From an uncultured Calditrichaceae bacterium (GTDB lineage Bacteria; Calditrichota; Calditrichia; RBG-13-44-9), in contig CAYLYM010000006.1 of NCBI GenBank assembly GCA_964387645.1, forward strand, positions 355 to 64,354: a stretch of DNA of 64,000 nt. The letters are read 5' to 3'. The notes under the pieces were generated by a model. The model had not been told where the DNA came from. It saw nothing but the letters and a program-made list of their open reading frames with translations, and did not search any database. Position numbers and translations under genes: made by a program. Positions 863 through 31,191 of this stretch are shown here, one piece after another; position 1 is the first letter of the stretch; each line of letters opens with the position of its first letter.

Positions 863-1780
863 GGTAATTAGAACTTCATTAGACCTTCAGGGCTCTAAAT
901 TTAACTGATTATCTTGTCTTTAGTTAAATAATAAAAAATTTCGTGAGTACCATGACTTTCTTGCTCACCGTTCTACTAACCGCTAAGCTCTTATCTTAAA
1001 TTTGGACTGTTCATAATTGTCAAGAATGAAAAACAGAGAGATGTCATCCTGGGCATATTTGAGTGAATACCACCATTTTTCCTTAAAAAATTTATACACA
1101 AATAAATTTCTTTATCCATCAATTTTATATTTTGCCGTTAATTTTTTTTACATTTTACAATAAATTAATTTTAATTCTTTCTAAACCAGTTGATGTAGTT
1201 GATATGGAGAAAAAAATAAATTTGCTCAAATTGTTGCTCAAAGGGGAGATTTGCTATATGTATAATTTTCATAGAAAAATTGTTGTCGAATATGAAAAAA
1301 TATTTTATAAAAGTGAGAAAGATTTTCTGTTTAAATATTTAAAAAAATTAATAAAACAGAAACTTCCAAATTTCTATTGACAAAATAAATCATTTATTAT
1401 ATACTGTAATAATAGAATAATTATATTTTTGAAGAAGTTGGCGAAAATACAGGGAAATAGTTTTTTTGATCTTGCTTGTTTTAATTTAACATTATTTTTA
1501 AAAGATTGATCTATCAATAATTTTTCAAACCTTTAGCTTAAAAAATATCGAGCGAATATCTAAGAAAAAAATATAAGTTAAAAATATTTATCGAATAAGA
1601 TTTGTTAATGAAAAGAAATTTAGTTATGTATTTTTGAATATATATTGTATATTCAATTATATATTAAAAATATTATTAAATTCTGAAAAATATATCGTTT
1701 AAATTGATTATGGGATAAAGATTAGTTTTATTAATTTTTACTTGTTTTTAACAGGTTTATAAATAATACAGGAGGTATGA

Positions 1781-3457
1781 ATGCAAGGAATTGAAAAAAG
1801 CCCTACTGGAATTAAGGGATTCGATGAAATAACACTAGGAGGTTTACCTAAAGAGAGACCAACTTTAGTTTGTGGAAAAGCAGGTTGTGGAAAAACTTTA
1901 TTTGCTATGGAATTTATTTATAAAGGTGCAGTAGAATTTAGAGAACCTGGCGTATTTGTTGCATTTGAAGAGACTGAAGAAGAACTGAAAAAGAATGTTA
2001 CAGCACTGGGATGGAACCTGGATAAGCTGATTGGTGAGAAAAAATTGATTATTGAACATATTCGTATTAATCCTTCAGAAATTGTGGAGACGGGAGAATA
2101 TAGCCTGGATGGCCTTTTGCTTCGTTTGAAGGCTGCGATCGATGAGATTGGCGCAAAAAGATTGGCAATTGATACTATTGAAGTTTTATTTAGTAGTTAT
2201 TCCAACAGTTTTATACTTCGAGCCGAAATACAGCGGCTATTTCGTTTTCTTAAAGAAAATAAGGTTACAGCCGTTATCACGGGTGAAATGGGAGATGGTA
2301 GACTAACCCGACATGGACTGGAAGAATATGTTTCGGATTGTGTGGTTTCTTTAGATCATTCTGTTGCCAATGGAATTGCTACACGCAGGTTACGGGTGGT
2401 AAAGTATCGTGGCTCTCGCCACGGAACCAATGAATTTCCGTTTTTTATTGAAGAAAATGGATTTTCCTTAATGCCAGTTACTGATCTGGAGATGGATTAT
2501 GAGGTACCTCATGAGAAAATTTCCACAGGAATTCCCCGCTTAGATGCCATGTTTGGAGGTGAGGGCTGTTATCGGGGTAGCAGCATTCTTATTTCCGGTA
2601 CTGCCGGAACAGGAAAGAGTACTTTGGCAGTTACTTTTGCAGATGCCAGTTGTCGCCGCCAAGAACCCTGCCTCTATATTAGCTTCGAAGAATCAGCAGA
2701 TCAAATCATTAGAAACATGCGTTCGGTTGGATTTGATTTGAAAAAACATATAGATAATGGCTTATTGAAATTTTACTCAACACGTCCAACCTTGATGGGA
2801 TTGGAAGAACATCTTTTCATGATACAGTCACAGATAGATAAATTTAACCCCAAGATGGTAATTGTTGATCCTATTTCAAATTTAGTATCCATTTCATCTC
2901 AACTGGAAGTGAAATGGATGTTTACCCGCTTAATTGATTTTATTAAAAGGAAACAAATCACAACTATCATGACTGATTTAACGGAACAGGATAGTTATTT
3001 CCGGGAAAATTCAACTGTGGGTATCTCCTCTCTTATTGATACCTGGATTTTCCTCAGGGACATTGAATCGGGAGGAGAAAGAAATAGAGGGCTTTATATA
3101 CTAAAAGCCAGAGGATTGAATCACTCCAATCAGATTAGAGAATTTCATATTACTTCAAAAGGAATAAAGTTCCTGGATGTTTATACCGGACCTGGAGGAG
3201 TTTTAACAGGTTCGGCCCGATTGACTCAAATGGTAAATGATAAATTAGCAGAACTTAAACGAAAATATGAAGTAAAAAATAAACAATTACAGTTGGAATT
3301 AATGCGTAAACAGATGGAATCCAGGATAGCTGAAATCAGGGCTGAATATGAAGCAAAAGAAGCAGAACTTAAACGTTTAATTGAACAAGATGAATTAAAA
3401 CAAAAAATTTTGGAAGATGCCAGAAAAGAAATGGCGGAACTTCGTAGAGCGGATTAA
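1781..3457 (+). CDS. kaiC: Circadian-clock-type ATPase KaiC (duplicated RecA-like CI and CII domains) with ~70 aa C-terminal coiled-coil extension
   Basis: Two Walker A motifs (GKAGCGKT, GTAGTGKS). Paired catalytic glutamates FEETEE and FEES. SS pair aligning with the KaiC S431/T432 phosphosites (GISSLIDTWIFL). Lys/Glu/Arg-rich heptad tail (ELKRKYEVKNKQLQLELMRKQ...AELRRAD). AGGAGG RBS 6 nt upstream. Confidence 0.9.
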   Translation: MQGIEKSPTGIKGFDEITLGGLPKERPTLVCGKAGCGKTLFAMEFIYKGAVEFREPGVFVAFEETEEELKKNVTALGWNLDKLIGEKKLIIEHIRINPSEIVETGEYSLDGLLLRLKAAIDEIGAKRLAIDTIEVLFSSYSNSFILRAEIQRLFRFLKENKVTAVITGEMGDGRLTRHGLEEYVSDCVVSLDHSVANGIATRRLRVVKYRGSRHGTNEFPFFIEENGFSLMPVTDLEMDYEVPHEKISTGIPRLDAMFGGEGCYRGSSILISGTAGTGKSTLAVTFADASCRRQEPCLYISFEESADQIIRNMRSVGFDLKKHIDNGLLKFYSTRPTLMGLEEHLFMIQSQIDKFNPKMVIVDPISNLVSISSQLEVKWMFTRLIDFIKRKQITTIMTDLTEQDSYFRENSTVGISSLIDTWIFLRDIESGGERNRGLYILKARGLNHSNQIREFHITSKGIKFLDVYTGPGGVLTGSARLTQMVNDKLAELKRKYEVKNKQLQLELMRKQMESRIAEIRAEYEAKEAELKRLIEQDELKQKILEDARKEMAELRRAD

Positions 3458-3476: not shown

Positions 3477-3815
3477 ATGGTCAAGACAAAATCAACTCAG
3501 GATCAAAAGTCGGATAAATCAGATGAGTTTTATGAGTTAAGACTTTATGTTGTAGGACAAAGTGAAAATTCTTTAAGAGCGTTTAAAAATTTGAAAAATA
3601 TTTGTGAAGAATACCTGAAGGGTAGGTATTCTATAGAAGTGATTGATTTGTTGGAAAATCCACAATTAGCTAAAGACCACCAGATATTGGCAGTTCCCAC
3701 CCTGGTTCGGAAATTGCCTGAACCAATGAAAAAAATAATCGGGAATCTTGCTAATAAAGAGAAAGTCCTTGTGGGACTGGATCTGAAACCGATGGAATTT
3801 AAGGATAAAGATTAA
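3477..3815 (+). CDS. kaiB: KaiB (thioredoxin-like fold), copy 1
   Basis: 112 aa. KaiB-like core [14 protein letters not shown]...[12 protein letters not shown]. Lies immediately downstream of kaiC with its own GAGGTG RBS. Confidence 0.85.
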
Positions 3816-3838: not shown

Positions 3839-4177
3839 ATGAAAAATGGAGAAAAAGAAATTCAAAATGTAGCGGCTGAATTTGAAAAAGCTTTGCAAAA
3901 ACAGGGAAAGTTATTTTATCGACTCAAGCTTTTTATCTCTGCTAATTCGCCAAGATCGAACAAAGCGATCTTGAATTTAAAATATATCTGCCAGACTTAT
4001 CTTGATGAAAAATATGAATTAGAGGTAATTGATGTTTTAAAAGAAAGAAGTAGTTTAAAAACCTATCACATTATAGCTATTCCGACTTTAATTAAAGAGA
4101 CACCTCTTCCAAAACGAAAGCTGATTGGAGATTTATCCAATAAAGAAGAAGTTTTATATGGATTAGGCATCAAATGA
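3839..4177 (+). CDS. kaiB: KaiB paralog, copy 2
   Basis: 112 aa. LKLFISANSPRS...IIAIPTLIKETPLP matches the same KaiB architecture as copy 1 but is diverged from it. Tandem to copy 1 and co-oriented. Confidence 0.8.
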   Translation: MKNGEKEIQNVAAEFEKALQKQGKLFYRLKLFISANSPRSNKAILNLKYICQTYLDEKYELEVIDVLKERSSLKTYHIIAIPTLIKETPLPKRKLIGDLSNKEEVLYGLGIK

Positions 4178-4196: not shown

Positions 4197-7103
4197 GTGG
4201 GGAATGGAAAAAAAACTCAATCTCATCTTGAAAAGGAGATTCAACGTTTGCAGAAAGAGTTGGGAGAAGCCACTTCAACTTTAAACGCCATAAGAGCTGG
4301 CGAAGTGGATGCCATCGTGGTACATGGTGATAAACAGACCCATGTATATACACTTAAAAGAGCTGATCAATCGTTTCTAACTCTTGTTGAGGAAATGTTG
4401 GAAGGGGCTGTAATTTTTGCATTAGATGGCACGATAATATATTGTAATTCAAGCTTTGCTGAAATGGTCGGAATGCCGGTGAAAAAGGTTATCGGTTCAT
4501 CGTTTTATCAGTTTGTGCTCCCTTCGAGAAAAATTGATATAGAAAAAACTCTGAAAAAAATTGATAAGGATGGATTGCAATTTGAAATGGAATTGAAAAC
4601 TGCGTTGGATAAGAATATACCTGCACTTTTATCCATTAAAAAGACAACCATTGAAAAGGAAGAATTGTTCACCACAACAATTGTTGATTTAAGCGAACAA
4701 AAAAGAAATGAGGAGATTATTGCACGTGGAAGATTGATAGAATCAATGTTAAAACAATCGCAAGAAGCGATTTTGGTTTGTGATGTTGAAGGGCGAATTA
4801 TCATGAGTAGCGAGCCAGCCAGAGAAATGGCCGGTAAAACCAACCTGAATCAATATTTCAAGAATGTTTTCCCCAATATTGTTTTAATGTTAGACGATCC
4901 TTCAGGTTCAGAAACAATTAAACAAATTCCTTTCTCAATCGATGATATTTTGCAAGGCAAATTTTTTTACAATATCGAAGGTAAATTTCAGCGCGGAGAT
5001 GGCAAAATCTATAATATTTTACTGCGAGCTCAAAGTATAAGAGATGAGAAAGATAATATAATTGGTGCTGTTGTTGGGTTTTCGGATATCACTCGGATTA
5101 AGAAAACTGAAAGTAAACGTGTGGCGCTATTTCAGATATCACATGCAGCTTTTTCTGCAGGTAATTTGAAGGAATTCTATTCCAAAGTGCATCAGATTGT
5201 TGGCAAAGTTTGTTATGCTGAAAATTTTTATATTGCCTTGTATTATAGAAATAAAAAAAGATTTGAGTTTGTATATGTTGTGGATGAATATGAGAAATCA
5301 CGCTTACCCAGTGCTCTGGCAGAGATTCTTATAAATAAGGTCACCCAAAAAAAAGAACCTTTATTGGCTTCAAAATCCGAAATTAAAAATTGGGTTTTGG
5401 AAAAAGGAGAGAAGTTTGAAGGAAAAATACCGAATTATTTTTTAGGAGTGCCTTTAAAAGTAAAAGATCAGCCCATCGGCGTTTTGGCTCTTCAGACTTA
5501 TAGGAATTGTGTGTCTTTCGATGAGGAAGAGATGGATTTCTTGAGAGTTATATCTGAACAGGTGGCAATGGCTATAGAGCGTATTCGGATAAATGAAGAA
5601 AATAAATTTCACAATACTGTTTTAACGTGGGTGCCCTATGGAGTTTTAATATTAGATCATACAGGAAAATTGGTCTGGGCTAATTCCACCTTTTGTCAGA
5701 TGATAGATTATTCAATGAAGGAACTCCAGGATGAATTTCCACCAATATATAAAGATTCTGTAAATTTTGGGCAACTTTTCGTTGAGATAGTAAAGTCTCT
5801 CGAGGAAAGTCAATCGTGGCAGGGAGAACTTGTTGTTTTAAGAAAAGATGGGAGTAATTTTCCTGCAGAAGCAATTTTTTCTCCAATAGAAAGAAATGGG
5901 AGTTATTTAGCAAGATATGTTGCCATCATACAAGACGTTTCTGAGAAACGTGAATTGGAACAACAATTTTTCCAGGCTCAGAAAATGGAGGCCATTGGCA
6001 AACTTGCTGGTGGTGTGGCCCACGATTTTAATAATATTCTCACCATAATTAATGGTTATAGCGATTTATTGTTGGCCAGATTAGATACGGATCATCCTTT
6101 TTACAAAGAAATATCTATGATCCGAAAAGCTGGGGAGCGGGCAAGCGGGTTGACAAACCAGCTTTTAGCTTTCAGCAGAAAGCAAATGATACGCCCCAGA
6201 AATCTTAACCTGAATACAATAATAAAAGACACAGAAAAAATGTTGAAGCGTTTAATAGGCGAAGATATTGAGCTTGTAACTCATCTAGATCCCGATTTAA
6301 ATGAAATTCACGTTGATCCCACACAGATTGATCAAATCATTATGAATCTTGCTGTAAATGCCAGGGATGCCATGCCCAAAGGGGGCAAACTAACTATTGA
6401 AACAAAAAATGTCGAATTAGACCAGAGTTATATCCAGAAACATGGAGAAGTTAAAGCAGGTTCTTATGTGATGCTTTCTATAAGTGATACAGGAATCGGG
6501 ATAGATAAGGAAACGATGCAACATATTTTTGAGCCTTTTTTTACAACTAAAGGTAAGGGAGAAGGAACCGGGCTTGGTTTATCTACTGTATACGGAATTG
6601 TAAAGCAAAATAATGGATATATTTGGGTTTACAGCGAGCCCGGCGAAGGTGCAGTTTTTAAAATCTATTTCCCAATAACTTCTAAAAAAGCTGGAGATGT
6701 CGAAGTCGAGAAAATTTCATCAGAAGAGTTAATTGGTAATGAAACAATTCTCCTAGCAGAAGATGATCATTGGGTAAGAGAATTAACAAAGTCCACTCTG
6801 GAAGCTTATGGTTACAAAGTATTGGAAGTAGAACGCGGTGATGAAGCGCTTAAAATTTGCAAAGAATTTAAGAATCCCATACATTTGCTGTTAACTGATG
6901 TAGTTATGCCTGGAATGAGTGGTAGCGAACTAGCTAAAAAAATATTAGAATATCATAAGGATATCAAAATTTTATATATGTCGGGTTATACCGATGACGC
7001 CATGATAAGATATGGGATTCGTGATAAAGAAGTAGAGTTTCTTCAAAAGCCTTTTTCTTCAAAAGTTCTTCTTGAAAAAGTAAGAAAGATATTGAATAAA
7101 TAG
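4197..7103 (+). CDS. Hybrid sensor histidine kinase: PAS-PAS-GAF-PAS sensor region, HisKA (H-box VAHDFNNILTII), HATPase_c (N-box NLAVNARDAM, G-box GTGLGLSTVYGIV), C-terminal receiver domain
   Basis: 968 aa ORF with a GTG start 10 nt after AGGAGG. Conserved H, N, G1 and G2 boxes. C-terminal REC with DD...D...K pattern (ILLAEDDHW...LLLTDVVMPGMSG). Co-oriented directly after kaiB2 with a 19 nt gap. Confidence 0.85.
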   Translation: MGNGKKTQSHLEKEIQRLQKELGEATSTLNAIRAGEVDAIVVHGDKQTHVYTLKRADQSFLTLVEEMLEGAVIFALDGTIIYCNSSFAEMVGMPVKKVIGSSFYQFVLPSRKIDIEKTLKKIDKDGLQFEMELKTALDKNIPALLSIKKTTIEKEELFTTTIVDLSEQKRNEEIIARGRLIESMLKQSQEAILVCDVEGRIIMSSEPAREMAGKTNLNQYFKNVFPNIVLMLDDPSGSETIKQIPFSIDDILQGKFFYNIEGKFQRGDGKIYNILLRAQSIRDEKDNIIGAVVGFSDITRIKKTESKRVALFQISHAAFSAGNLKEFYSKVHQIVGKVCYAENFYIALYYRNKKRFEFVYVVDEYEKSRLPSALAEILINKVTQKKEPLLASKSEIKNWVLEKGEKFEGKIPNYFLGVPLKVKDQPIGVLALQTYRNCVSFDEEEMDFLRVISEQVAMAIERIRINEENKFHNTVLTWVPYGVLILDHTGKLVWANSTFCQMIDYSMKELQDEFPPIYKDSVNFGQLFVEIVKSLEESQSWQGELVVLRKDGSNFPAEAIFSPIERNGSYLARYVAIIQDVSEKRELEQQFFQAQKMEAIGKLAGGVAHDFNNILTIINGYSDLLLARLDTDHPFYKEISMIRKAGERASGLTNQLLAFSRKQMIRPRNLNLNTIIKDTEKMLKRLIGEDIELVTHLDPDLNEIHVDPTQIDQIIMNLAVNARDAMPKGGKLTIETKNVELDQSYIQKHGEVKAGSYVMLSISDTGIGIDKETMQHIFEPFFTTKGKGEGTGLGLSTVYGIVKQNNGYIWVYSEPGEGAVFKIYFPITSKKAGDVEVEKISSEELIGNETILLAEDDHWVRELTKSTLEAYGYKVLEVERGDEALKICKEFKNPIHLLLTDVVMPGMSGSELAKKILEYHKDIKILYMSGYTDDAMIRYGIRDKEVEFLQKPFSSKVLLEKVRKILNK

Positions 7104-7234
7104 AATAAAAAACTCACCACGGCACACTTATTCTTTTTTAACAATTAAAAGGTTATATTTTAATTTATTATTTCTGCAATTAAAGGACCGATTGATCCTT
7201 CAATTAAGATGATGAGACTTTAACTGTCGAAAAA

Positions 7235-7271
7235 ATCGATAAATTTATCGATTTTGAATCTATAATCGATA
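7235..7271. promoter_or_regulatory. Perfect 18-bp palindrome ATCGATAAATTTATCGAT plus a third ATCGATA half-site 13 bp downstream; candidate operator
   Basis: Read directly in the 520 bp intergenic region between the kai/HK operon and rdgB. Confidence 0.3.
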
Positions 7272-7623
7272 AGAAGACTCATCCAATTATAAATTTTAGA
7301 AAACTTAAATTTTGTTTTAAGTTTATTATTTTATTCGTCTTAGATAAATGCACTTAAGTTATTTTGATATTTTTTTGATAAAAATCAGCAGAAAGAGAGA
7401 AAGAATACCAATATTGAAGTAAAGCGGAAGTTTTTTGAAAGTGGATATGCTTTTGATTAGCAATATTTACAAATCAAAAGTTTCTGTTTTTAATAGACTC
7501 TTGAAAGTATAAATAAACCGCTTTTTTAAAATATAGCATTGCTAACAAGGTAAATCTGCTTTATTTTCGATCACATTTTATTGCGAATTACTTTGAGGAT
7601 GGAAAAAATTAGCAAGGTAATTT

Positions 7624-16032: not shown

Positions 16033-17589
16033 ATGGCAAAAAATACTATCCTCTGGGTAGATGATGAGATAGAATTTTTACAACCACATATATTGTTTTT
16101 GAAAGAAAAGGGTTACGAGGTTATTACCACTACTAACGCCGATGATGCTATTGAAATGATTCGAAATGGTGTTTTTGACCTGGTTTTACTGGACGAAATG
16201 ATGCCTGGTAAAGATGGTTTAACTGCACTGGGTGAGATTAAGGAGCTGAATCCGGCCCTTCCGGTAATTATGATTACCAAAAATGAAGAAGAGACTCTGA
16301 TGGAAGATGCCATCGGTGCAAAAATAGATGATTATTTAACCAAGCCGGTGAATCCCAGTCAGATATTGATGGTATGTAAAAAGCATTTGGAATTTCACGA
16401 TATTTCACAGAAACGCTTGACGGAGGCTTCTTCACAAAAGATTCGGGAAATTGCTTTAAAATTGATGGAACCGCTAAATTTTAACGATTGGATTGACATT
16501 TACAGAAAATTGGTTGAATGGGACCTGGAGTTAGACCGGGTGAGCGATCAACAGATGCGCCAGGTTATTTACGATCAGCGTCGGGAATGTAATGTGGAAT
16601 TTGGAAAATTTATTGAAAGAAACTATATCGATTGGCTCCATCAAAAAGAAAATCGGCCAGAGTTGTCGATCGATATTGTGAAGAATTACGTTCTACCTGA
16701 AATGCAGGCGGGGAAAAAGGTAGTATTTGTCGTGATCGATTGTTTGCGTCTGGATCAATGGTTGACTTTAGAACCTTTCTTTTATCCATTCTTTAATATT
16801 TCAAAAACTTTTTATTACTCTATACTTCCCACGGCAACGCCTTTTTCACGTAATGCCATTTTTAGCGGGTTATTTCCATTGGAAATCGAGCGCCGTTATC
16901 CCGATATCTGGGCTCAGGGAGAAGATGATGATTACAGCCGCAACCGCTACGAGGACAAATTGCTTTACGATCAGTTACGTATTCTTGGTCTGAAACTTCA
17001 GTCATCTCCCGGATATATTAAAATTTTAAATTCGGAAGACGCCAAAAGTCTGGAAAAGAATTTGCCAGGTTATCTGGATTCATCATTATTGAGTATTGTA
17101 GTAAATTTTGTGGACATTTTGGCGCACAGCCGTTCGGATGTGCCTATTTTAAAAGAAATTGCTCCTGATGAATCTTCTTACCGCTCGCTGACTCGATCGT
17201 GGTTTGAACATTCTGCAATTTATAATGTCTTTAAGATTTTAGCCGATCAGAATGTGACTATTATTCTGACCAGCGATCATGGCAGTATTCGAAGTTTGAG
17301 GGGAACAAAAGTTATCGGTGATCGCGAAACCAGCACCAATTTGCGCTATAAATACGGGCGAAATTTGAAAGTAAATCCAAAACATGCCTTGTATATCAAG
17401 AACCCGAAAGATTTTAAATTACCTCAATCCAATTTCAATGTTAATTATATCATCGCTAAAGAAGATTACTATTTTGTTTATCCGACCAATTATCATAAAT
17501 ATCTGGCCTATTACCGCGATAGTTTTCAACATGGCGGGGTTTCGATGGAGGAAATGATTCTACCACTGGTGAAGTTGCAGCCTAAATAG
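16033..17589 (+). CDS. PorX-like response regulator: N-terminal CheY-like receiver fused to a PglZ (alkaline-phosphatase superfamily) effector domain
   Basis: REC motifs ILWVDDE...LVLLDEMMPGKDG...K. C-terminal PglZ-type metal-ligand motifs VFVVIDCLRLDQW and TSDHGS. Confidence 0.8.
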   Translation: MAKNTILWVDDEIEFLQPHILFLKEKGYEVITTTNADDAIEMIRNGVFDLVLLDEMMPGKDGLTALGEIKELNPALPVIMITKNEEETLMEDAIGAKIDDYLTKPVNPSQILMVCKKHLEFHDISQKRLTEASSQKIREIALKLMEPLNFNDWIDIYRKLVEWDLELDRVSDQQMRQVIYDQRRECNVEFGKFIERNYIDWLHQKENRPELSIDIVKNYVLPEMQAGKKVVFVVIDCLRLDQWLTLEPFFYPFFNISKTFYYSILPTATPFSRNAIFSGLFPLEIERRYPDIWAQGEDDDYSRNRYEDKLLYDQLRILGLKLQSSPGYIKILNSEDAKSLEKNLPGYLDSSLLSIVVNFVDILAHSRSDVPILKEIAPDESSYRSLTRSWFEHSAIYNVFKILADQNVTIILTSDHGSIRSLRGTKVIGDRETSTNLRYKYGRNLKVNPKHALYIKNPKDFKLPQSNFNVNYIIAKEDYYFVYPTNYHKYLAYYRDSFQHGGVSMEEMILPLVKLQPK

Positions 17590-24820: not shown

Positions 24821-24906
24821 GCCGGGGTGGTGGAATTGGCAGACGCGCTAGGTTCAGGACCTAGTGGGCTTGATCGCCCGTGCGGGTTCGAGTCCCGCCC
24901 TCGGCA
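24821..24906 (+). tRNA. tRNA-Leu, anticodon CAG, long variable arm
   Basis: Acceptor stem GCCGGGG/CCTCGGC. Anticodon loop TTCAGGA. T-arm GCGGGTTCGAGTCCCGC. Near-identical in layout to E. coli tRNA-Leu(CAG). CCA not encoded. Confidence 0.9.
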
Positions 24907-25183: not shown

Positions 25184-26505
25184 ATGAGTTTAACATATAA
25201 AAAAATATTTACATTCTGGGTTCCATTGGCTGCTACTTGGTTGATGATGTAGATAGAAGGACCTTTTTTCTGGCGGCAATTATAGCCCATCTGGCGGAGC
25301 CAAAGTACAACCTTGCAGCTTATGGTGTAGCTTTTTCCTTTGCACTGATCATCGATGCCCCTATCATTATGATTATGAGTGCTGCCACTGCTTTAGTAAA
25401 GGATCGAAAAAGTTTCTTAAAGCTCCGAAATTTTACCTATTTTCTTAATGGTCTGTTAACATTAAGCATGATTGCTTGTATTATTCCCACCATATTTTTT
25501 GGATCACTCAAAACCTGATTCATTTGCCACGGTTAGTTGCGGTGTTGACCCATAGGGCAATGATCATCTTGTTGCCCTGGCCAGATGCAATTGGTTATCG
25601 ACGTTTTTATCAGGGAATTCTTATACGAAGTAATTTAACACGCAGAGTGGCCTATGGAACGCTGGTACGCCTGTTTAGTATGAGCATGACGGCTTTACTT
25701 TTATATTTGATTTTTGATTTTCCTGGCGCTGTGGTTGGAGCATCGGCATTGTCGGTGGGTGTAACCCTGGAAGCTATAGTTAGCCGTTTAATGGCAAAAA
25801 AGGCAGTAAGGATGTTTATATCCATAGATAAAGGAGAACAAAAAACGACAAGAAAGGATCTTTCCTATATTAGTATTGCCCGTTTTTATAATCCACTGGC
25901 GCTGACATCAATACTCAGCCTGGGTGTCCATACCATTGTTACCTTTTTTGTTGGGCGAAGTAAATTAGCTCTGGAGTCTTTGGCCATGTTACCGGTGATC
26001 AATTCATTAGTGTTTATTTTTCGTGGTATCGGGCTTCATATCAGGAGGTCGGTATTGCTCTGTTGGGAGAAAAAGATGAAGGCTATGTACCGCTTCGAAA
26101 TTTTGCAGTATTATTACTGGCCACTGGATTAGTTGTAGGACTCTCATTGTTGGTATTCACTTCCCTGTCGCAGTGGTGGTTTCAGACAGTTTCTGGATTA
26201 TCGCAGGAATTAGGGCAATTGGCTATGTTTCCCGCTCAGATTATAGTCTTTATGCCTAGACTAACTGTTCATTTTTCCTTTGAAAAGTCAGTTCTGGTTG
26301 CCCATCGTTATACTACACCAATTTTACCACTGGAACCTTAATTGAGTTTGGAGGGATTCTTTTTGTGCTTATGTTTACCATACACTATTTTAACTTTGTT
26401 GGAGCCGTAGCGGTATGTTTAGCGTATGTATTGGGAAGATTAGCTTCCAACGGATATTTCTTTATTCCCCTTTTTAAAATTTTACGAGTGAGAAATAAAG
26501 ATTAG
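25184..26505 (+). pseudogene. Multiply frameshifted MOP/MATE-superfamily polysaccharide/lipid flippase gene
   Basis: One continuous polytopic membrane protein is spread over all three forward frames. The ATG at 25184 gives MSLTYKKIFTFWVPLAATWLMM then a TAG (frame 25184). A second segment, ORF 25237..25518, is in another frame. It then continues in the 25476, 26063 and 26341+ frames and ends at the TAG at 26503-26505. At least three frame changes. Confidence 0.6.
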
Positions 26506-27639: not shown

Positions 27640-28122
27640 ATGAAGAATAATACTAAGAAGCCTCTGGTTTATTTAGCCGGTGCTATTGAAAATGCTCCCG
27701 GGAATGGCAAAGAATGGCGGGAGAGGATTACACAGTTCCTGGTGAATGAGTTAAACCATGATGTATTTAATCCTTGTTTGGAAGAAAACCACGTGCTCAC
27801 ACCTGATGAGTTCCGTAATTTCAGGCAGTGGAAGAGCTCGGATCTGGTACGATTTCGAAAAGTAGTGCACAAAATCATAGAAAACGATTTAAGCATGTTG
27901 ATTAACAGGGTGGATTATATCATTTGTTTATGGGATGAGTATGTTCTGCATGGAGGAGGGACACATGGTGAACTTACTATGGCCTTCTGGCACAACATTC
28001 CTGTCTATATGGTAACGAAAATTCCTGTGCAAAAAATGAGCAGTTGGATTATCGGTTGCACGACCAGAATTTTTGATAACTTTGAAGAATTAAAGGTATT
28101 TTTACGAAAAAAATATAAATGA
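27640..28122 (+). CDS. Nucleoside 2-deoxyribosyltransferase-like (NDT/LOG-superfamily) small protein
   Basis: N-terminal LVYLAGAIE (cf. NDT IYFGAGWF). C-terminal HGGGTHGELTMAF aligns with the NDT catalytic-Glu motif GLGMELGYAL. 160 aa. Confidence 0.5.
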   Translation: MKNNTKKPLVYLAGAIENAPGNGKEWRERITQFLVNELNHDVFNPCLEENHVLTPDEFRNFRQWKSSDLVRFRKVVHKIIENDLSMLINRVDYIICLWDEYVLHGGGTHGELTMAFWHNIPVYMVTKIPVQKMSSWIIGCTTRIFDNFEELKVFLRKKYK

Positions 28123-30285: not shown

Positions 30286-31191
30286 ATGTCAAAAGAATCT
30301 CGAAGGCTTCAGATAATATCCAGACGTTTAACTACTCATCAACTCCGACGCTTACAAGGAATGGATATACCATTCGATTATACAAATTTTTTGGGAAGAG
30401 ATATTAGCCAACGTAGTTCTCCTTACTTTCTGGGATATTATTCATGCGAAGGAATAGAATATGCTCTGGAGACTTATGGATTCTTCAGCCAATTACGTAA
30501 AAGGGGATTAGACAACTTTATATTAGTAGTAAACACTGAGGATCCTTACAAACAACGTATTGCCCTTTATTATAATCAGAAGGATTCGGATCATCTTCTT
30601 GGAGAGTTGGTTGTTAAGCGTAAGAATATTACTATAAATCCTCCTTTTCCCAGCCGGGTTCTTGGACGCAATTTCGAAGTAATTTCTGTAGAATGGTTGT
30701 GTTTGCAAAATCCCGAAGCGTCTTTTACGCCAGATCGGCCCAGGCTTCCCGGACAAAAATACCCCGGGTTGAAGATGGGTTCGATGGTAATGGAGTTATT
30801 AATTATCATGTGTGGAAGGCTGAGAACGGCGGGTTTATTAAATATTCCCGAACATTTTCATAATGCCCAGATGTATGCACCACAATTCCGTTTTATTGAT
30901 CCATTATATGCTGGTAAACAAAAAGCTATTGCCCGCGATCTTCTTCCTAAATATCATTTGGCAGATGTTTCCTGGGCGATCGATCTCAAATGTGTAACCG
31001 AAAATCGGAAACCCTTTGAATGGTTTATATCGGAGCAAATCATTCCACTTGACCGTGATCTTAAAGAATATTTTAATAACAAATCCTATGTGAATTATGT
31101 GAACAAAGTGGCTGAACAATATCGTTATGAAATTGATGAAGAAAAATGGAATGTAAAGAAACAAGAAATAGATTATTTTACGGGTAGTTGA
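30286..31191 (+). CDS. Hypothetical protein (301 aa), co-oriented partner of the HDAC-family gene
   Basis: Long ORF starting 106 nt after the HDAC gene stop. No confidently recognisable domain. Confidence 0.5.
   Translation: MSKESRRLQIISRRLTTHQLRRLQGMDIPFDYTNFLGRDISQRSSPYFLGYYSCEGIEYALETYGFFSQLRKRGLDNFILVVNTEDPYKQRIALYYNQKDSDHLLGELVVKRKNITINPPFPSRVLGRNFEVISVEWLCLQNPEASFTPDRPRLPGQKYPGLKMGSMVMELLIIMCGRLRTAGLLNIPEHFHNAQMYAPQFRFIDPLYAGKQKAIARDLLPKYHLADVSWAIDLKCVTENRKPFEWFISEQIIPLDRDLKEYFNNKSYVNYVNKVAEQYRYEIDEEKWNVKKQEIDYFTGS

Follow-up and report, generated by a model that had tools for sequence, protein, structure and literature searches.

KaiC-RS is the KaiC of Rhodobacter (Cereibacter) sphaeroides (PDB 8DBA, 8FWI, 8FWJ and 8DB3; Pitsawong et al., Nature 2023, PMC10076222). 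Crystallography and cryo-EM showed that its C-terminal tail forms a bundle of 12 helices which joins two hexamers tail to tail into a dodecamer (PMC10076222). The dodecamer is a dumbbell in which the hexamers are bridged by a coil of ~115 Å (PMC10076222; bioRxiv 10.64898/2026.04.01.715469). KaiC-RS has an exposed A-loop and autophosphorylates without KaiA (PMC10076222). [quoted passage not shown] The role assigned to the coil is fast auto-dephosphorylation, brought about by a shift in its register that is coupled to the phosphosites; the coil also gives the hexamer stability upon KaiB binding (PMC10076222). KaiB binds to CI, distant from the tail, and KaiBC-RS is an hourglass which is reset by the ATP/ADP ratio and shows no autonomous cycling (PMC10076222).

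Synechocystis KaiC2 and the KaiC proteins of Rhodopseudomonas palustris and Legionella pneumophila form part of the KaiC2 subgroup (Schmelling et al. 2017, PMC5520375), the signature of which is a Ser-Ser pair in place of Ser-Thr (PMC10076222, PMC5520375). For Bacteroidetes, only KaiB2/KaiC2-like proteins were reported (PMC5520375). The canonical KaiC1 of Synechococcus elongatus (PDB 1TF7 and others) has Ser-Thr sites and a buried A-loop released by KaiA; it forms a single hexamer and runs a self-sustained, temperature-compensated oscillation. The resurrected ancestral KaiC-eta matches KaiC-RS in the length of its tail, and SAXS showed it to be a dumbbell-shaped dodecamer; it carries an inhibitory Lys beside the CII catalytic Glu and has very low activity (bioRxiv 10.64898/2026.04.01.715469).

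Here we analysed a kaiC gene and its surroundings in a stretch of 64,000 nucleotides, in the following called the window. The features are:

1781..3457 (stop codon included), + strand: kaiC of the KaiC2 / KaiC-RS type, a 558-aa ORF coding for a double-domain KaiC
1802..2476, + strand: CI ATPase domain, residues 8-232, the best Pfam stretch
2519..3205, + strand: CII kinase/phosphatase domain, approximately residues 247-475 (AAA_25, DnaB_C and RecA matches over 238-393; bounds approximate)
3026..3031, + strand: Ser416-Ser417, predicted dual phosphorylation sites (codons TCC TCT), aligned to S413/S414 of KaiC-RS
3209..3451, + strand: C-terminal helix / coiled-coil extension, residues 477-557 (81 residues), from AF2 helix, heptad seam and homology
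3443..3454, + strand: terminal R-R-A-D motif, R555-D558, the exact end of the protein
3477..3815, + strand: kaiB copy 1, 112 aa, PF07689 with E = 3e-27, starting 19 nt past kaiC
3839..4177, + strand: kaiB copy 2, 112 aa, divergent, PF07689 with E = 2e-21 and 8FWJ_M with E = 3e-20
4197..7103, + strand: hybrid sensor histidine kinase, 968 aa, with PAS, GAF, HisKA, HATPase_c and receiver domains in Pfam

With a probability of roughly 85%, the tail of this KaiC is an orthologue of the KaiC-RS coiled-coil extension, and the system to which it belongs is a dodecamer-forming KaiC2 hourglass. Reading the tail as a coiled coil is not new in itself, as it restates the 2023 KaiC-RS paper (PMC10076222); the window KaiC belongs to a known family, as an ordinary and uncharacterised member.

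The protein contains two PF06745 KaiC domains (E = 3e-113, Pfam). In CI, the Walker A motif GKAGCGKT lies at residues 32-39 and the catalytic pair is E63/E64, which aligns to E62/E63 of KaiC-RS, where mutation abolished the CI ATPase (PMC10076222). In CII, the Walker A motif is GTAGTGKS at 273-280 and the catalytic pair is E303/E304, aligned to E302/E303 of KaiC-RS. Across 72 homologues the Walker A motifs and EE pairs of both domains are invariant, as is S416, and S417 is at least 90% conserved. Pfam detected no KaiA domain in the 50 ORFs of the window that have 150 aa or more, in either KaiB or in the 82-aa upstream ORF. The Ser-Ser phosphosites together with a KaiA-less kaiC-kaiB-kaiB-kinase operon thus assign the window KaiC to the KaiC2 type. 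Tandem domains, Ser-Ser sites, a helical tail with the ~50 extra residues that distinguish this type from KaiC1/KaiC3 and an adjacent kaiB without a kaiA in the window all agree with membership in the KaiC2 / KaiC-RS group; the Ser-Ser sites, the longer tail and the lack of a kaiA in the window set the protein apart from canonical KaiA-dependent KaiC1. With the members of the KaiC2 subgroup it shares the Ser-Ser sites, the KaiA-independent type and a KaiB2-like KaiB alongside, and there is no difference of substance. The likeness to S. elongatus KaiC1 comprises the CI/CII architecture and the catalytic motifs (36-37% identity, TM ~0.9 over two rings). This alignment stops at query residue 494, which is chain residue 507 of 519, leaving 64 residues beyond it in the window protein versus 12, so that its tail is ~52 residues longer. 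At the position of the KaiC-eta Lys the window protein has S370, and in this it resembles the later 'theta' (Thr) state.

The best sequence match in the PDB was KaiC-RS (8DBA/8FWI/8FWJ), with E = 6e-187 for 8DBA over residues 2-541 at 52% identity. The same three entries were the top Foldseek matches in the order 8FWJ/8FWI/8DBA (E ~5e-66, 52% identity, 529-546 alignment columns). Both proteins have double KaiC domains, the Ser-Ser sites, the EE pairs and a kaiB directly downstream of kaiC, with no kaiA in the window, and in both the C-terminal helix is ~50 residues longer than that of cyanobacterial KaiC. The likeness extends into the coil itself. When the window tail was aligned without gaps to the KaiC-RS coil, 17 of 58 residues were identical with a BLOSUM z of 5.7, a score reached by none of 20000 composition-preserving shuffles, and the next-best offset was exactly -7, i. 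e. one heptad. The two tails have a core register in common (window/KaiC-RS: I516/I, I519/L, Y523/L, L530/L, L533/L). However, identity in the tail is only ~30%, compared with 52% overall, and the dodecamer that we infer for the window KaiC is transferred from this 52%-identical homologue. The window protein also stops at RRAD, 81 residues past the LTG motif, whereas KaiC-RS continues for about ten residues more, and the window has two kaiB genes. Ser370 stands where KaiC-RS has Glu369, a site tied to the catalytic rate in a 2026 preprint (bioRxiv 10.64898/2026.04.01.715469); therefore the kinetics may differ from those of KaiC-RS. Finally, the host of KaiC-RS is a purple phototroph and the host of the window, which has a low GC content (36.5%), is apparently non-phototrophic, so that a day/night ATP/ADP cue would be an extrapolation here.

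In cyanobacterial KaiC, the A-loop/C-terminus is the established binding site of KaiA (PMC10076222, PMC5520375). From this the original prediction had argued that a coil at this position favours a constitutively exposed A-loop and hexamer-hexamer stacking. An exposed A-loop and KaiA-free phosphorylation are indeed found in KaiC-RS, but the coil is not their cause, since truncation keeps exchange and phosphorylation. Likewise, two hexamers are joined in KaiC-RS, but stacking is a loose term for a dumbbell which is bridged by the coil and in which the rings are not in direct contact. A stronger version would be that the coil draws the A-loop out and holds it in the exposed state, that the tail is needed for KaiA-independent autophosphorylation and that its removal stops cycling. 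The helix does start directly past the LTG motif beside the A-loop position, and the KaiC-RS authors at first conjectured that the tail substitutes for KaiA (PMC10076222). Yet we consider this version improbable: the truncation site Glu490 corresponds approximately to window residue 493, and KaiC-RS lacking the coil retains wild-type exchange and phosphorylation, the A-loop being pivotal according to the authors. What is lost instead is dephosphorylation and stability, in a system that never cycles autonomously (PMC10076222). For the same reason autonomous phosphorylation cycling, which had been proposed as the read-out of a truncation mutant, was the wrong target for an hourglass reset by ATP/ADP. 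More plausibly, KaiA-independent autophosphorylation of the window KaiC would derive from an intrinsically extended A-loop and not from the coil.

Translation of 3230-3457 (+) gives MVNDKLAELKRKYEVKNKQ...EMAELRRAD*, the very peptide that had been quoted in the original prediction; residues 484-558 correspond to 3230..3454 and the stop codon to 3455-3457. AlphaFold2, run on the monomer, predicts a single continuous helix for residues 477-557, which would measure ~120 Å if straight. Its onset thus lies ~7 residues (21 nt) upstream of the segment as first delimited, and that segment falls within the helix except for its two final codons, that of D558 and the stop. The pLDDT is 84-88 for residues 481-530 and 83 for 531-540; it declines to 75 over 541-550 and to 58 over the final eight residues. 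The coiled-coil idea therefore passes the disorder check that had been set for it, as the tail is predicted to be ordered and helical.

The composition of residues 484-558 (n = 75) is biased: 49% are D/E/K/R and 29% LIVMFYW, Pro and Gly are absent, and E, K, L, A and R together make up 68% of the tail. In the best register of the lone sequence, LIVMFYW occupy 55% of the a/d positions versus 19% elsewhere, which was matched by 1.4% of shuffles (p = 0.014). A Fourier analysis of the window tail alone gave no significant power at periods of 3.5, 3.6 or 7 residues. About 9 of its 21 a/d positions are polar or Ala, among them, in the first half, the 'a' residues K488, K495, Q502 and R509. Because the periodicity of the lone sequence was weak, a family profile was built. 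Over 56 non-redundant tails the hydrophobic period was strongest at exactly 3.5 residues (p = 0.001). Hydrophobic residues are conserved in columns 492, 498, 505, 512, 516, 519, 523, 530, 533, 544, 551 and 554; except for 492, which is one residue off, these columns follow an unbroken single a/d register from 498 to 554 (a = 516/523/530/544/551; d = 498/505/512/519/533/554). LIVMFYW occupancy reaches 0.98-1.00 at columns 505, 512, 516, 519, 523 and 551, and Ala predominates at columns 514, 517, 518, 521 and 525. Hence the description of the tail as strongly heptad-patterned and charged is correct for its charge and for the family, and overstated for the single sequence. The long coiled coil itself is borne out by the predicted helix, the family seam and the homology to the KaiC-RS coil.

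A charged helix of this kind could also be an unpaired single stable alpha-helix (SAH), i. e. a spacer or ruler that might present RRAD to a partner. Besides the charged composition, the tail has 28 opposite-charge pairs at i to i+3 and i to i+4 compared with 17.6 +/- 3.3 in shuffles (p = 0.002), the heptad signal of the lone sequence is weak and the helix of the AF2 monomer is straight and free-standing. The content of bulky hydrophobics, however, is in our judgement high for an SAH segment, the hydrophobic seam with period 3.5 is kept across phyla, and the coil to which the tail aligns in register was solved as a 12-helix bundle. An SAH is therefore very improbable, and we rejected it on the conserved a/d seam with columns at 98-100% LIVMFYW.

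For the preferred reading, a coiled coil orthologous to that of KaiC-RS, the mechanism would be as follows. The six helices of one hexamer would interdigitate with the six of a second hexamer to form a 12-helix bundle; with their CII rings joined tail to tail by this bundle, the two hexamers would make up a dumbbell-shaped dodecamer. At the end of the tail, the invariant R-x-A-D may reach the opposite CII ring and could have its role there. The hydrophobic core would be sparse, with a bulky seam (I516, I519, Y523, L530, L533) beside a conserved seam of small residues, mainly Ala. Such a pair of seams suits a bundle that swaps partners and shifts its register upon phosphorylation of Ser416/Ser417. 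By analogy to KaiC-RS, the coil would couple the phosphorylation state to fast auto-dephosphorylation by back-transfer to ADP of the ATP-synthase type, and would hold the hexamers together when KaiB binds and loosens CI. The dodecamer, the register shift, the role in dephosphorylation and the hourglass behaviour are all suggested for the window KaiC by this homology.

In the window, the four genes kaiC-kaiB-kaiB-kinase are separated by gaps of 19-23 nt. The top PDB match of kaiB copy 1 was KaiB-RS (8FWJ_M, E = 8e-29); copy 2 is 46% identical to copy 1. The hybrid histidine kinase is likely to be an output or input partner within the kaiC operon. Of 80 related loci among the matches listed, 37 have a histidine-kinase core at most 6 kb downstream of kaiC, and a second kaiB occurs at 26 of 80 loci with a tailed kaiC (about a third), again among the matches listed. 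Most likely, an operon with two KaiBs and a kinase encodes an ATP/ADP-responsive hourglass timer or a metabolic-state switch and not a self-sustained oscillator. The tight operon and the recurrence of both neighbours would also fit a tail that serves mainly as a docking helix for an operon partner, such as the divergent KaiB copy 2 or the kinase with its heptad-like N-terminus, and not as a homotypic bundle. This is highly improbable as the main function, because KaiB of KaiC-RS binds far from the tail (PMC10076222) and the tail is equally conserved at loci with 0, 1 or 2 kaiB genes. Docking of this kind is compatible with a coiled-coil bundle and does not exclude it.

Among 120 homologues listed, the tail is present in 119 of 119 full-length proteins (556-605 aa; query coverage 95-100%, and 98-100% in all but one). 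These homologues include a 99%-identical protein from an NCBI MAG labelled 'Bacteroidetes bacterium'. The tails past the LTG motif comprise 81-114 residues, that of the window having 81, and they align essentially without gaps through the terminal R-x-A-D, in which, over 72 homologues, R555 never varies and D558 is conserved to at least 90%. At scorable GTDB loci among the matches listed, 60 of 61 tails were at least 80 residues long; the tailed loci span Bacteroidota, Ignavibacteria, Acidobacteriota, Cyanobacteria, Planctomycetota and Methanoperedens, and the best KaiC identity in GTDB genome contigs among the matches listed was 58%. The closest relatives thus keep the tail, whose absence from orthologues would have counted against the coiled coil. 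A phmmer search of 1.84 billion representatives with the tail only returned 20 weak matches (best E = 1.6e-6), few because the query is short and biased and because full-length KaiC2s are collapsed into few 50% clusters. Of these, 18 were proteins of 59-176 aa matched to or near their own C-terminus, six of which were inspected and are KaiC C-terminal fragments; the remaining two were giant coiled-coil proteins. There is thus no indication of the tail outside KaiC in this search with a short, biased query. That the tail is no real feature, i. e. a disordered low-complexity segment, for which its biased composition might speak, or a frameshift or read-through artefact of assembly, is effectively refuted by the identical 558-aa protein encoded on four independent metagenome contigs, the position-specific, gap-free conservation in more than 100 homologues, the ordered helix predicted by AF2 and the KaiC fragments returned by the tail-only search.

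The significance of the locus lies mostly in annotation: a low-GC MAG contains a complete KaiC2-type kaiC-kaiB-kaiB-histidine kinase operon, the KaiC of which carries every sequence hallmark of the dodecameric hourglass KaiC of R. sphaeroides. A further non-phototrophic lineage is thereby seen to conserve the tail, its invariant terminal Arg and the a/d seam, and the family-level map of the bulky seam, the Ala seam and R555 names specific residues that could be mutated.

The recurrent two-KaiB architecture may merit separate study. At these loci the order of the paralogues is fixed. The first is highly conserved, with 72% identity across phyla, and this tightly conserved 'first KaiB' class includes kaiB copy 1 of the window. 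The second paralogue is a KaiB2-like protein of ordinary or divergent type. Possibly, the kaiC-kaiB-kaiB-kinase arrangement represents a KaiBC timer variant of its own, not described before, in which the KaiBs have separate roles on a coiled-coil dodecamer, but we think this unlikely. One KaiB could for example bind CI as an activator of the ATPase; the other could act as antagonist or as adaptor to the histidine kinase. If true, this variant could give a non-phototrophic bacterium a richer timing than a simple ATP/ADP hourglass.

Elsewhere in the window, a PorX-like REC-PglZ gene is present, and one tRNA was the sole Rfam match.

The KaiC gene lies in close succession with its 3' neighbours; 19-23 nt separate kaiC, two kaiB genes and a histidine kinase gene.

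1781..3457 (+), kaiC, ORF of 558 aa carrying the Pfam KaiC domain twice (PF06745, E = 3e-113)
3477..3815, kaiB copy 1 (PF07689)
3839..4177, kaiB copy 2 (PF07689)
4197..7103, hybrid histidine kinase of 968 aa (PAS, GAF, HisKA, HATPase_c and receiver domains)

Translation of 3230-3457 gives MVNDKLAELKRKYEV...EMAELRRAD*, i.e. residues 484-558 and the stop codon. This KaiC has a Walker A motif and a catalytic Glu pair in each of its two domains, together with the Ser-Ser phosphosite pair S416/S417, which corresponds to S413/S414 of the Rhodobacter sphaeroides protein (KaiC-RS). Four independent metagenome contigs encode the identical KaiC with the same neighbours; thus the tail did not arise from misassembly. 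The kinase gene, which has a GTG start 19 nt from kaiB copy 2, apparently belongs to the kaiC-kaiB-kaiB operon. Among the matches listed, 37 of 80 loci have a kinase core 3' of the tailed kaiC. On the sister contig L002 the kinase gene is broken into separate 398-aa and 490-aa ORFs.

Of the 75 tail residues, 49% carry a charge and 29% are bulky hydrophobics; Pro and Gly are absent. The original prediction had called them strongly heptad-patterned. For the single sequence this is an overstatement, because the best register, with LIVMFYW at 55% of a/d positions versus 19% elsewhere, is matched by 1.4% of shuffles and the Fourier power at a period of 3.5 residues does not reach significance. The heptad signal of this sequence by itself is modest. 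For the family the description holds: an alignment of the 120 listed homologues, thinned to 56 non-redundant tails, gave a hydrophobicity profile that peaked at exactly 3.5 residues (p = 0.001). One unbroken a/d register runs through hydrophobic columns 498, 505, 512, 516, 519, 523, 530, 533, 544, 551 and 554, several of which are 98-100% hydrophobic in the family alignment. An Ala-rich stripe (514, 517, 518, 521, 525) adjoins them; R555 never varies and D558 hardly does. From an alignment of 72 sequences, AlphaFold2 predicted residues 477-557 as a single helix (81 residues, ~120 Å) and not as a disordered tail, with pLDDT of 75-88 across 481-550 and 58 in the last eight residues. The helix begins about 7 residues earlier than had been proposed. 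Composition, family heptad profile and predicted helix together confirm a charged helical tail at 3230-3457.

The tail is kept in close relatives. The nearest one (77% identity, among the matches listed) also has 558 aa and ends in RRAD. The full-length homologues (119 among the 120 listed) are 556-605 aa long; their alignments span 95-100% of the query, and 98-100% in all but one. Their tails past the LTG motif measure 81-114 residues and align nearly gap-free through the terminal R-x-A-D motif; the 81 residues of the window protein are the minimal form, yet a common one (23/120 listed homologues). In GTDB contigs from one genome per species, 60 of 61 scorable loci among the matches listed have a tail of at least 80 residues, and the tailed loci span Bacteroidota, Ignavibacteria, Acidobacteriota, Cyanobacteria, Planctomycetota, Proteobacteria and the archaeon Methanoperedens. 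A search of 1.84 billion representatives with the tail only matched short proteins at their C-terminus, those inspected being KaiC C-terminal fragments, and two unrelated giant coiled-coil proteins.

The single scorable locus with a short tail (29 residues past LTG) is L041, a Janthinobacterium lividum MAG (KaiC ORF 5953..7515). Its tblastn match to the query nonetheless runs through residue 555, and the tail there is probably frameshifted or pseudogenized. In P0122 and P0123, metagenomic KaiC2-type C-terminal fragments, roughly 45 residues are apparently deleted, namely the A-loop region DVY..GPGGVLTGSAR and the beginning of the tail; the sequence rejoins mid-coil (…TDKGVNLLVIQLNLERKRKAMEAQ…).

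Among solved structures, the best sequence matches are 8DBA, 8FWI and 8FWJ of KaiC-RS (E = 6e-187), the alignment extending through the tail up to residue 541. Foldseek returned the same structures at the top (E ~5e-66, 546 alignment columns, 52% identity). Ungapped comparison of the two tails gave z = 5.7, a score reached by 0/20000 composition-preserving shuffles; hence the likeness goes beyond shared composition. The second-best offset is exactly one heptad. The KaiC-RS extension, which exceeds that of other KaiC clades by ~50 residues and is typical of the Ser-Ser KaiC2 subgroup, assembles into a 12-helix coiled-coil bundle that holds two hexamers together as a dodecamer (Pitsawong et al., Nature 2023, PMC10076222). 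S. elongatus KaiC is ~52 residues shorter than the window protein. D172 matches D171 of KaiC-RS, whereas Ser370 stands where KaiC-RS has Glu369. The 370-equivalent site has been linked to CII activity; a slow ancestor carries Lys there and an intermediate node Thr (bioRxiv 10.64898/2026.04.01.715469). Further small differences from KaiC-RS are the second kaiB gene and the low-GC host (36.5%), labelled Bacteroidetes in NCBI. This label fits the report that Bacteroidetes encode only KaiB2/KaiC2-like proteins (Schmelling et al. 2017, PMC5520375). The window KaiC is clearly a member of a clade whose tail, structure and function are already published.

Most likely, by homology, the tail works as in KaiC-RS. 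Six tails from each of two hexamers would build the bundle, and the invariant C-terminal motif would extend to the opposite CII ring. On phosphorylation the KaiC-RS helices exchange partners, with a register shift along ~115 Å that is coupled to the phosphosites via an allosteric network (PMC10076222). The bulky seam and the Ala seam would, in our interpretation, fit a helix that packs against two alternative neighbours. When the KaiC-RS coil is truncated, nucleotide exchange (19.1 vs 18.0 per h) and autophosphorylation (5.5 vs 7.4 per h) do not change, but hardly any ADP-driven dephosphorylation is left, and without the coil the hexamer disassembles upon KaiB binding (PMC10076222). KaiB on CI raises ATPase activity 7.5-fold, and KaiBC-RS is an hourglass set by the ATP/ADP ratio (Q10 ~1.9), not a self-sustained oscillator (PMC10076222).

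The original prediction of a coiled coil, of hexamer-hexamer association and of a KaiA-free context with exposed A-loop is supported, for hexamer association and the A-loop by homology to KaiC-RS; in substance it is the published model and not a new idea. Its causal part fails in KaiC-RS: the coil does not expose the A-loop or enable the kinase, truncation costs dephosphorylation and the stability of the KaiB-bound hexamer and not phosphorylation, and the supposed autonomous cycling is an hourglass.

A single-alpha-helix spacer would also account for the high charge and the enriched i/i+4 salt bridges, but it conflicts with the hydrophobic seam kept across the family and with the homology to a solved bundle, which make it very improbable. 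That the tail is a partner-docking element we consider slightly less probable still. A disordered tail or an artefact is excluded by the four contigs, the position-specific conservation and the AlphaFold2 helix.

Of possibly wider interest is only the KaiB pair. Two tandem kaiB genes 3' of the tailed kaiC occur in 26 of 80 related GTDB loci among the matches listed (L007, L011, L012, L015, L021, L023, L024 and others). The first KaiBs cluster tightly as one clade, with a mean identity of 72% across phyla; for each of them the nearest neighbour from a different locus is again a first KaiB (27/27). Second KaiBs are intermixed with the single KaiBs of one-kaiB loci at ~53% identity; kaiB copy 2 of the window is a divergent member. 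No description of such a fixed-order paralogue pair was found in the literature searched.

Elsewhere in the window the following were noted.

1132..1380, ORF of 82 aa, also called as a gene on sister metagenome contigs; no Pfam match at E <= 1e-4
16033..17589, receiver fused to a PglZ (alkaline-phosphatase-like) domain
24821..24906, tRNA (Rfam), one in the window
25476..26132, 27640..28122 and 30286..31191, ORFs of 160-301 aa; no Pfam match (E 1e-4; 0.01 for the first and third)

The 82-aa ORF sits between a PAP2 gene and a ~400-nt AT-rich region upstream of kaiC. The receiver-PglZ architecture is that of PorX, which regulates type IX secretion in Bacteroidota, and agrees with an origin of the DNA in that phylum. 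The other genes are ordinary housekeeping ones (guaA, glmS, surE, tsaE/tsaB, accD, metG, tyrS, smpB, recJ, Fe/Mn SOD, cbiMQO).
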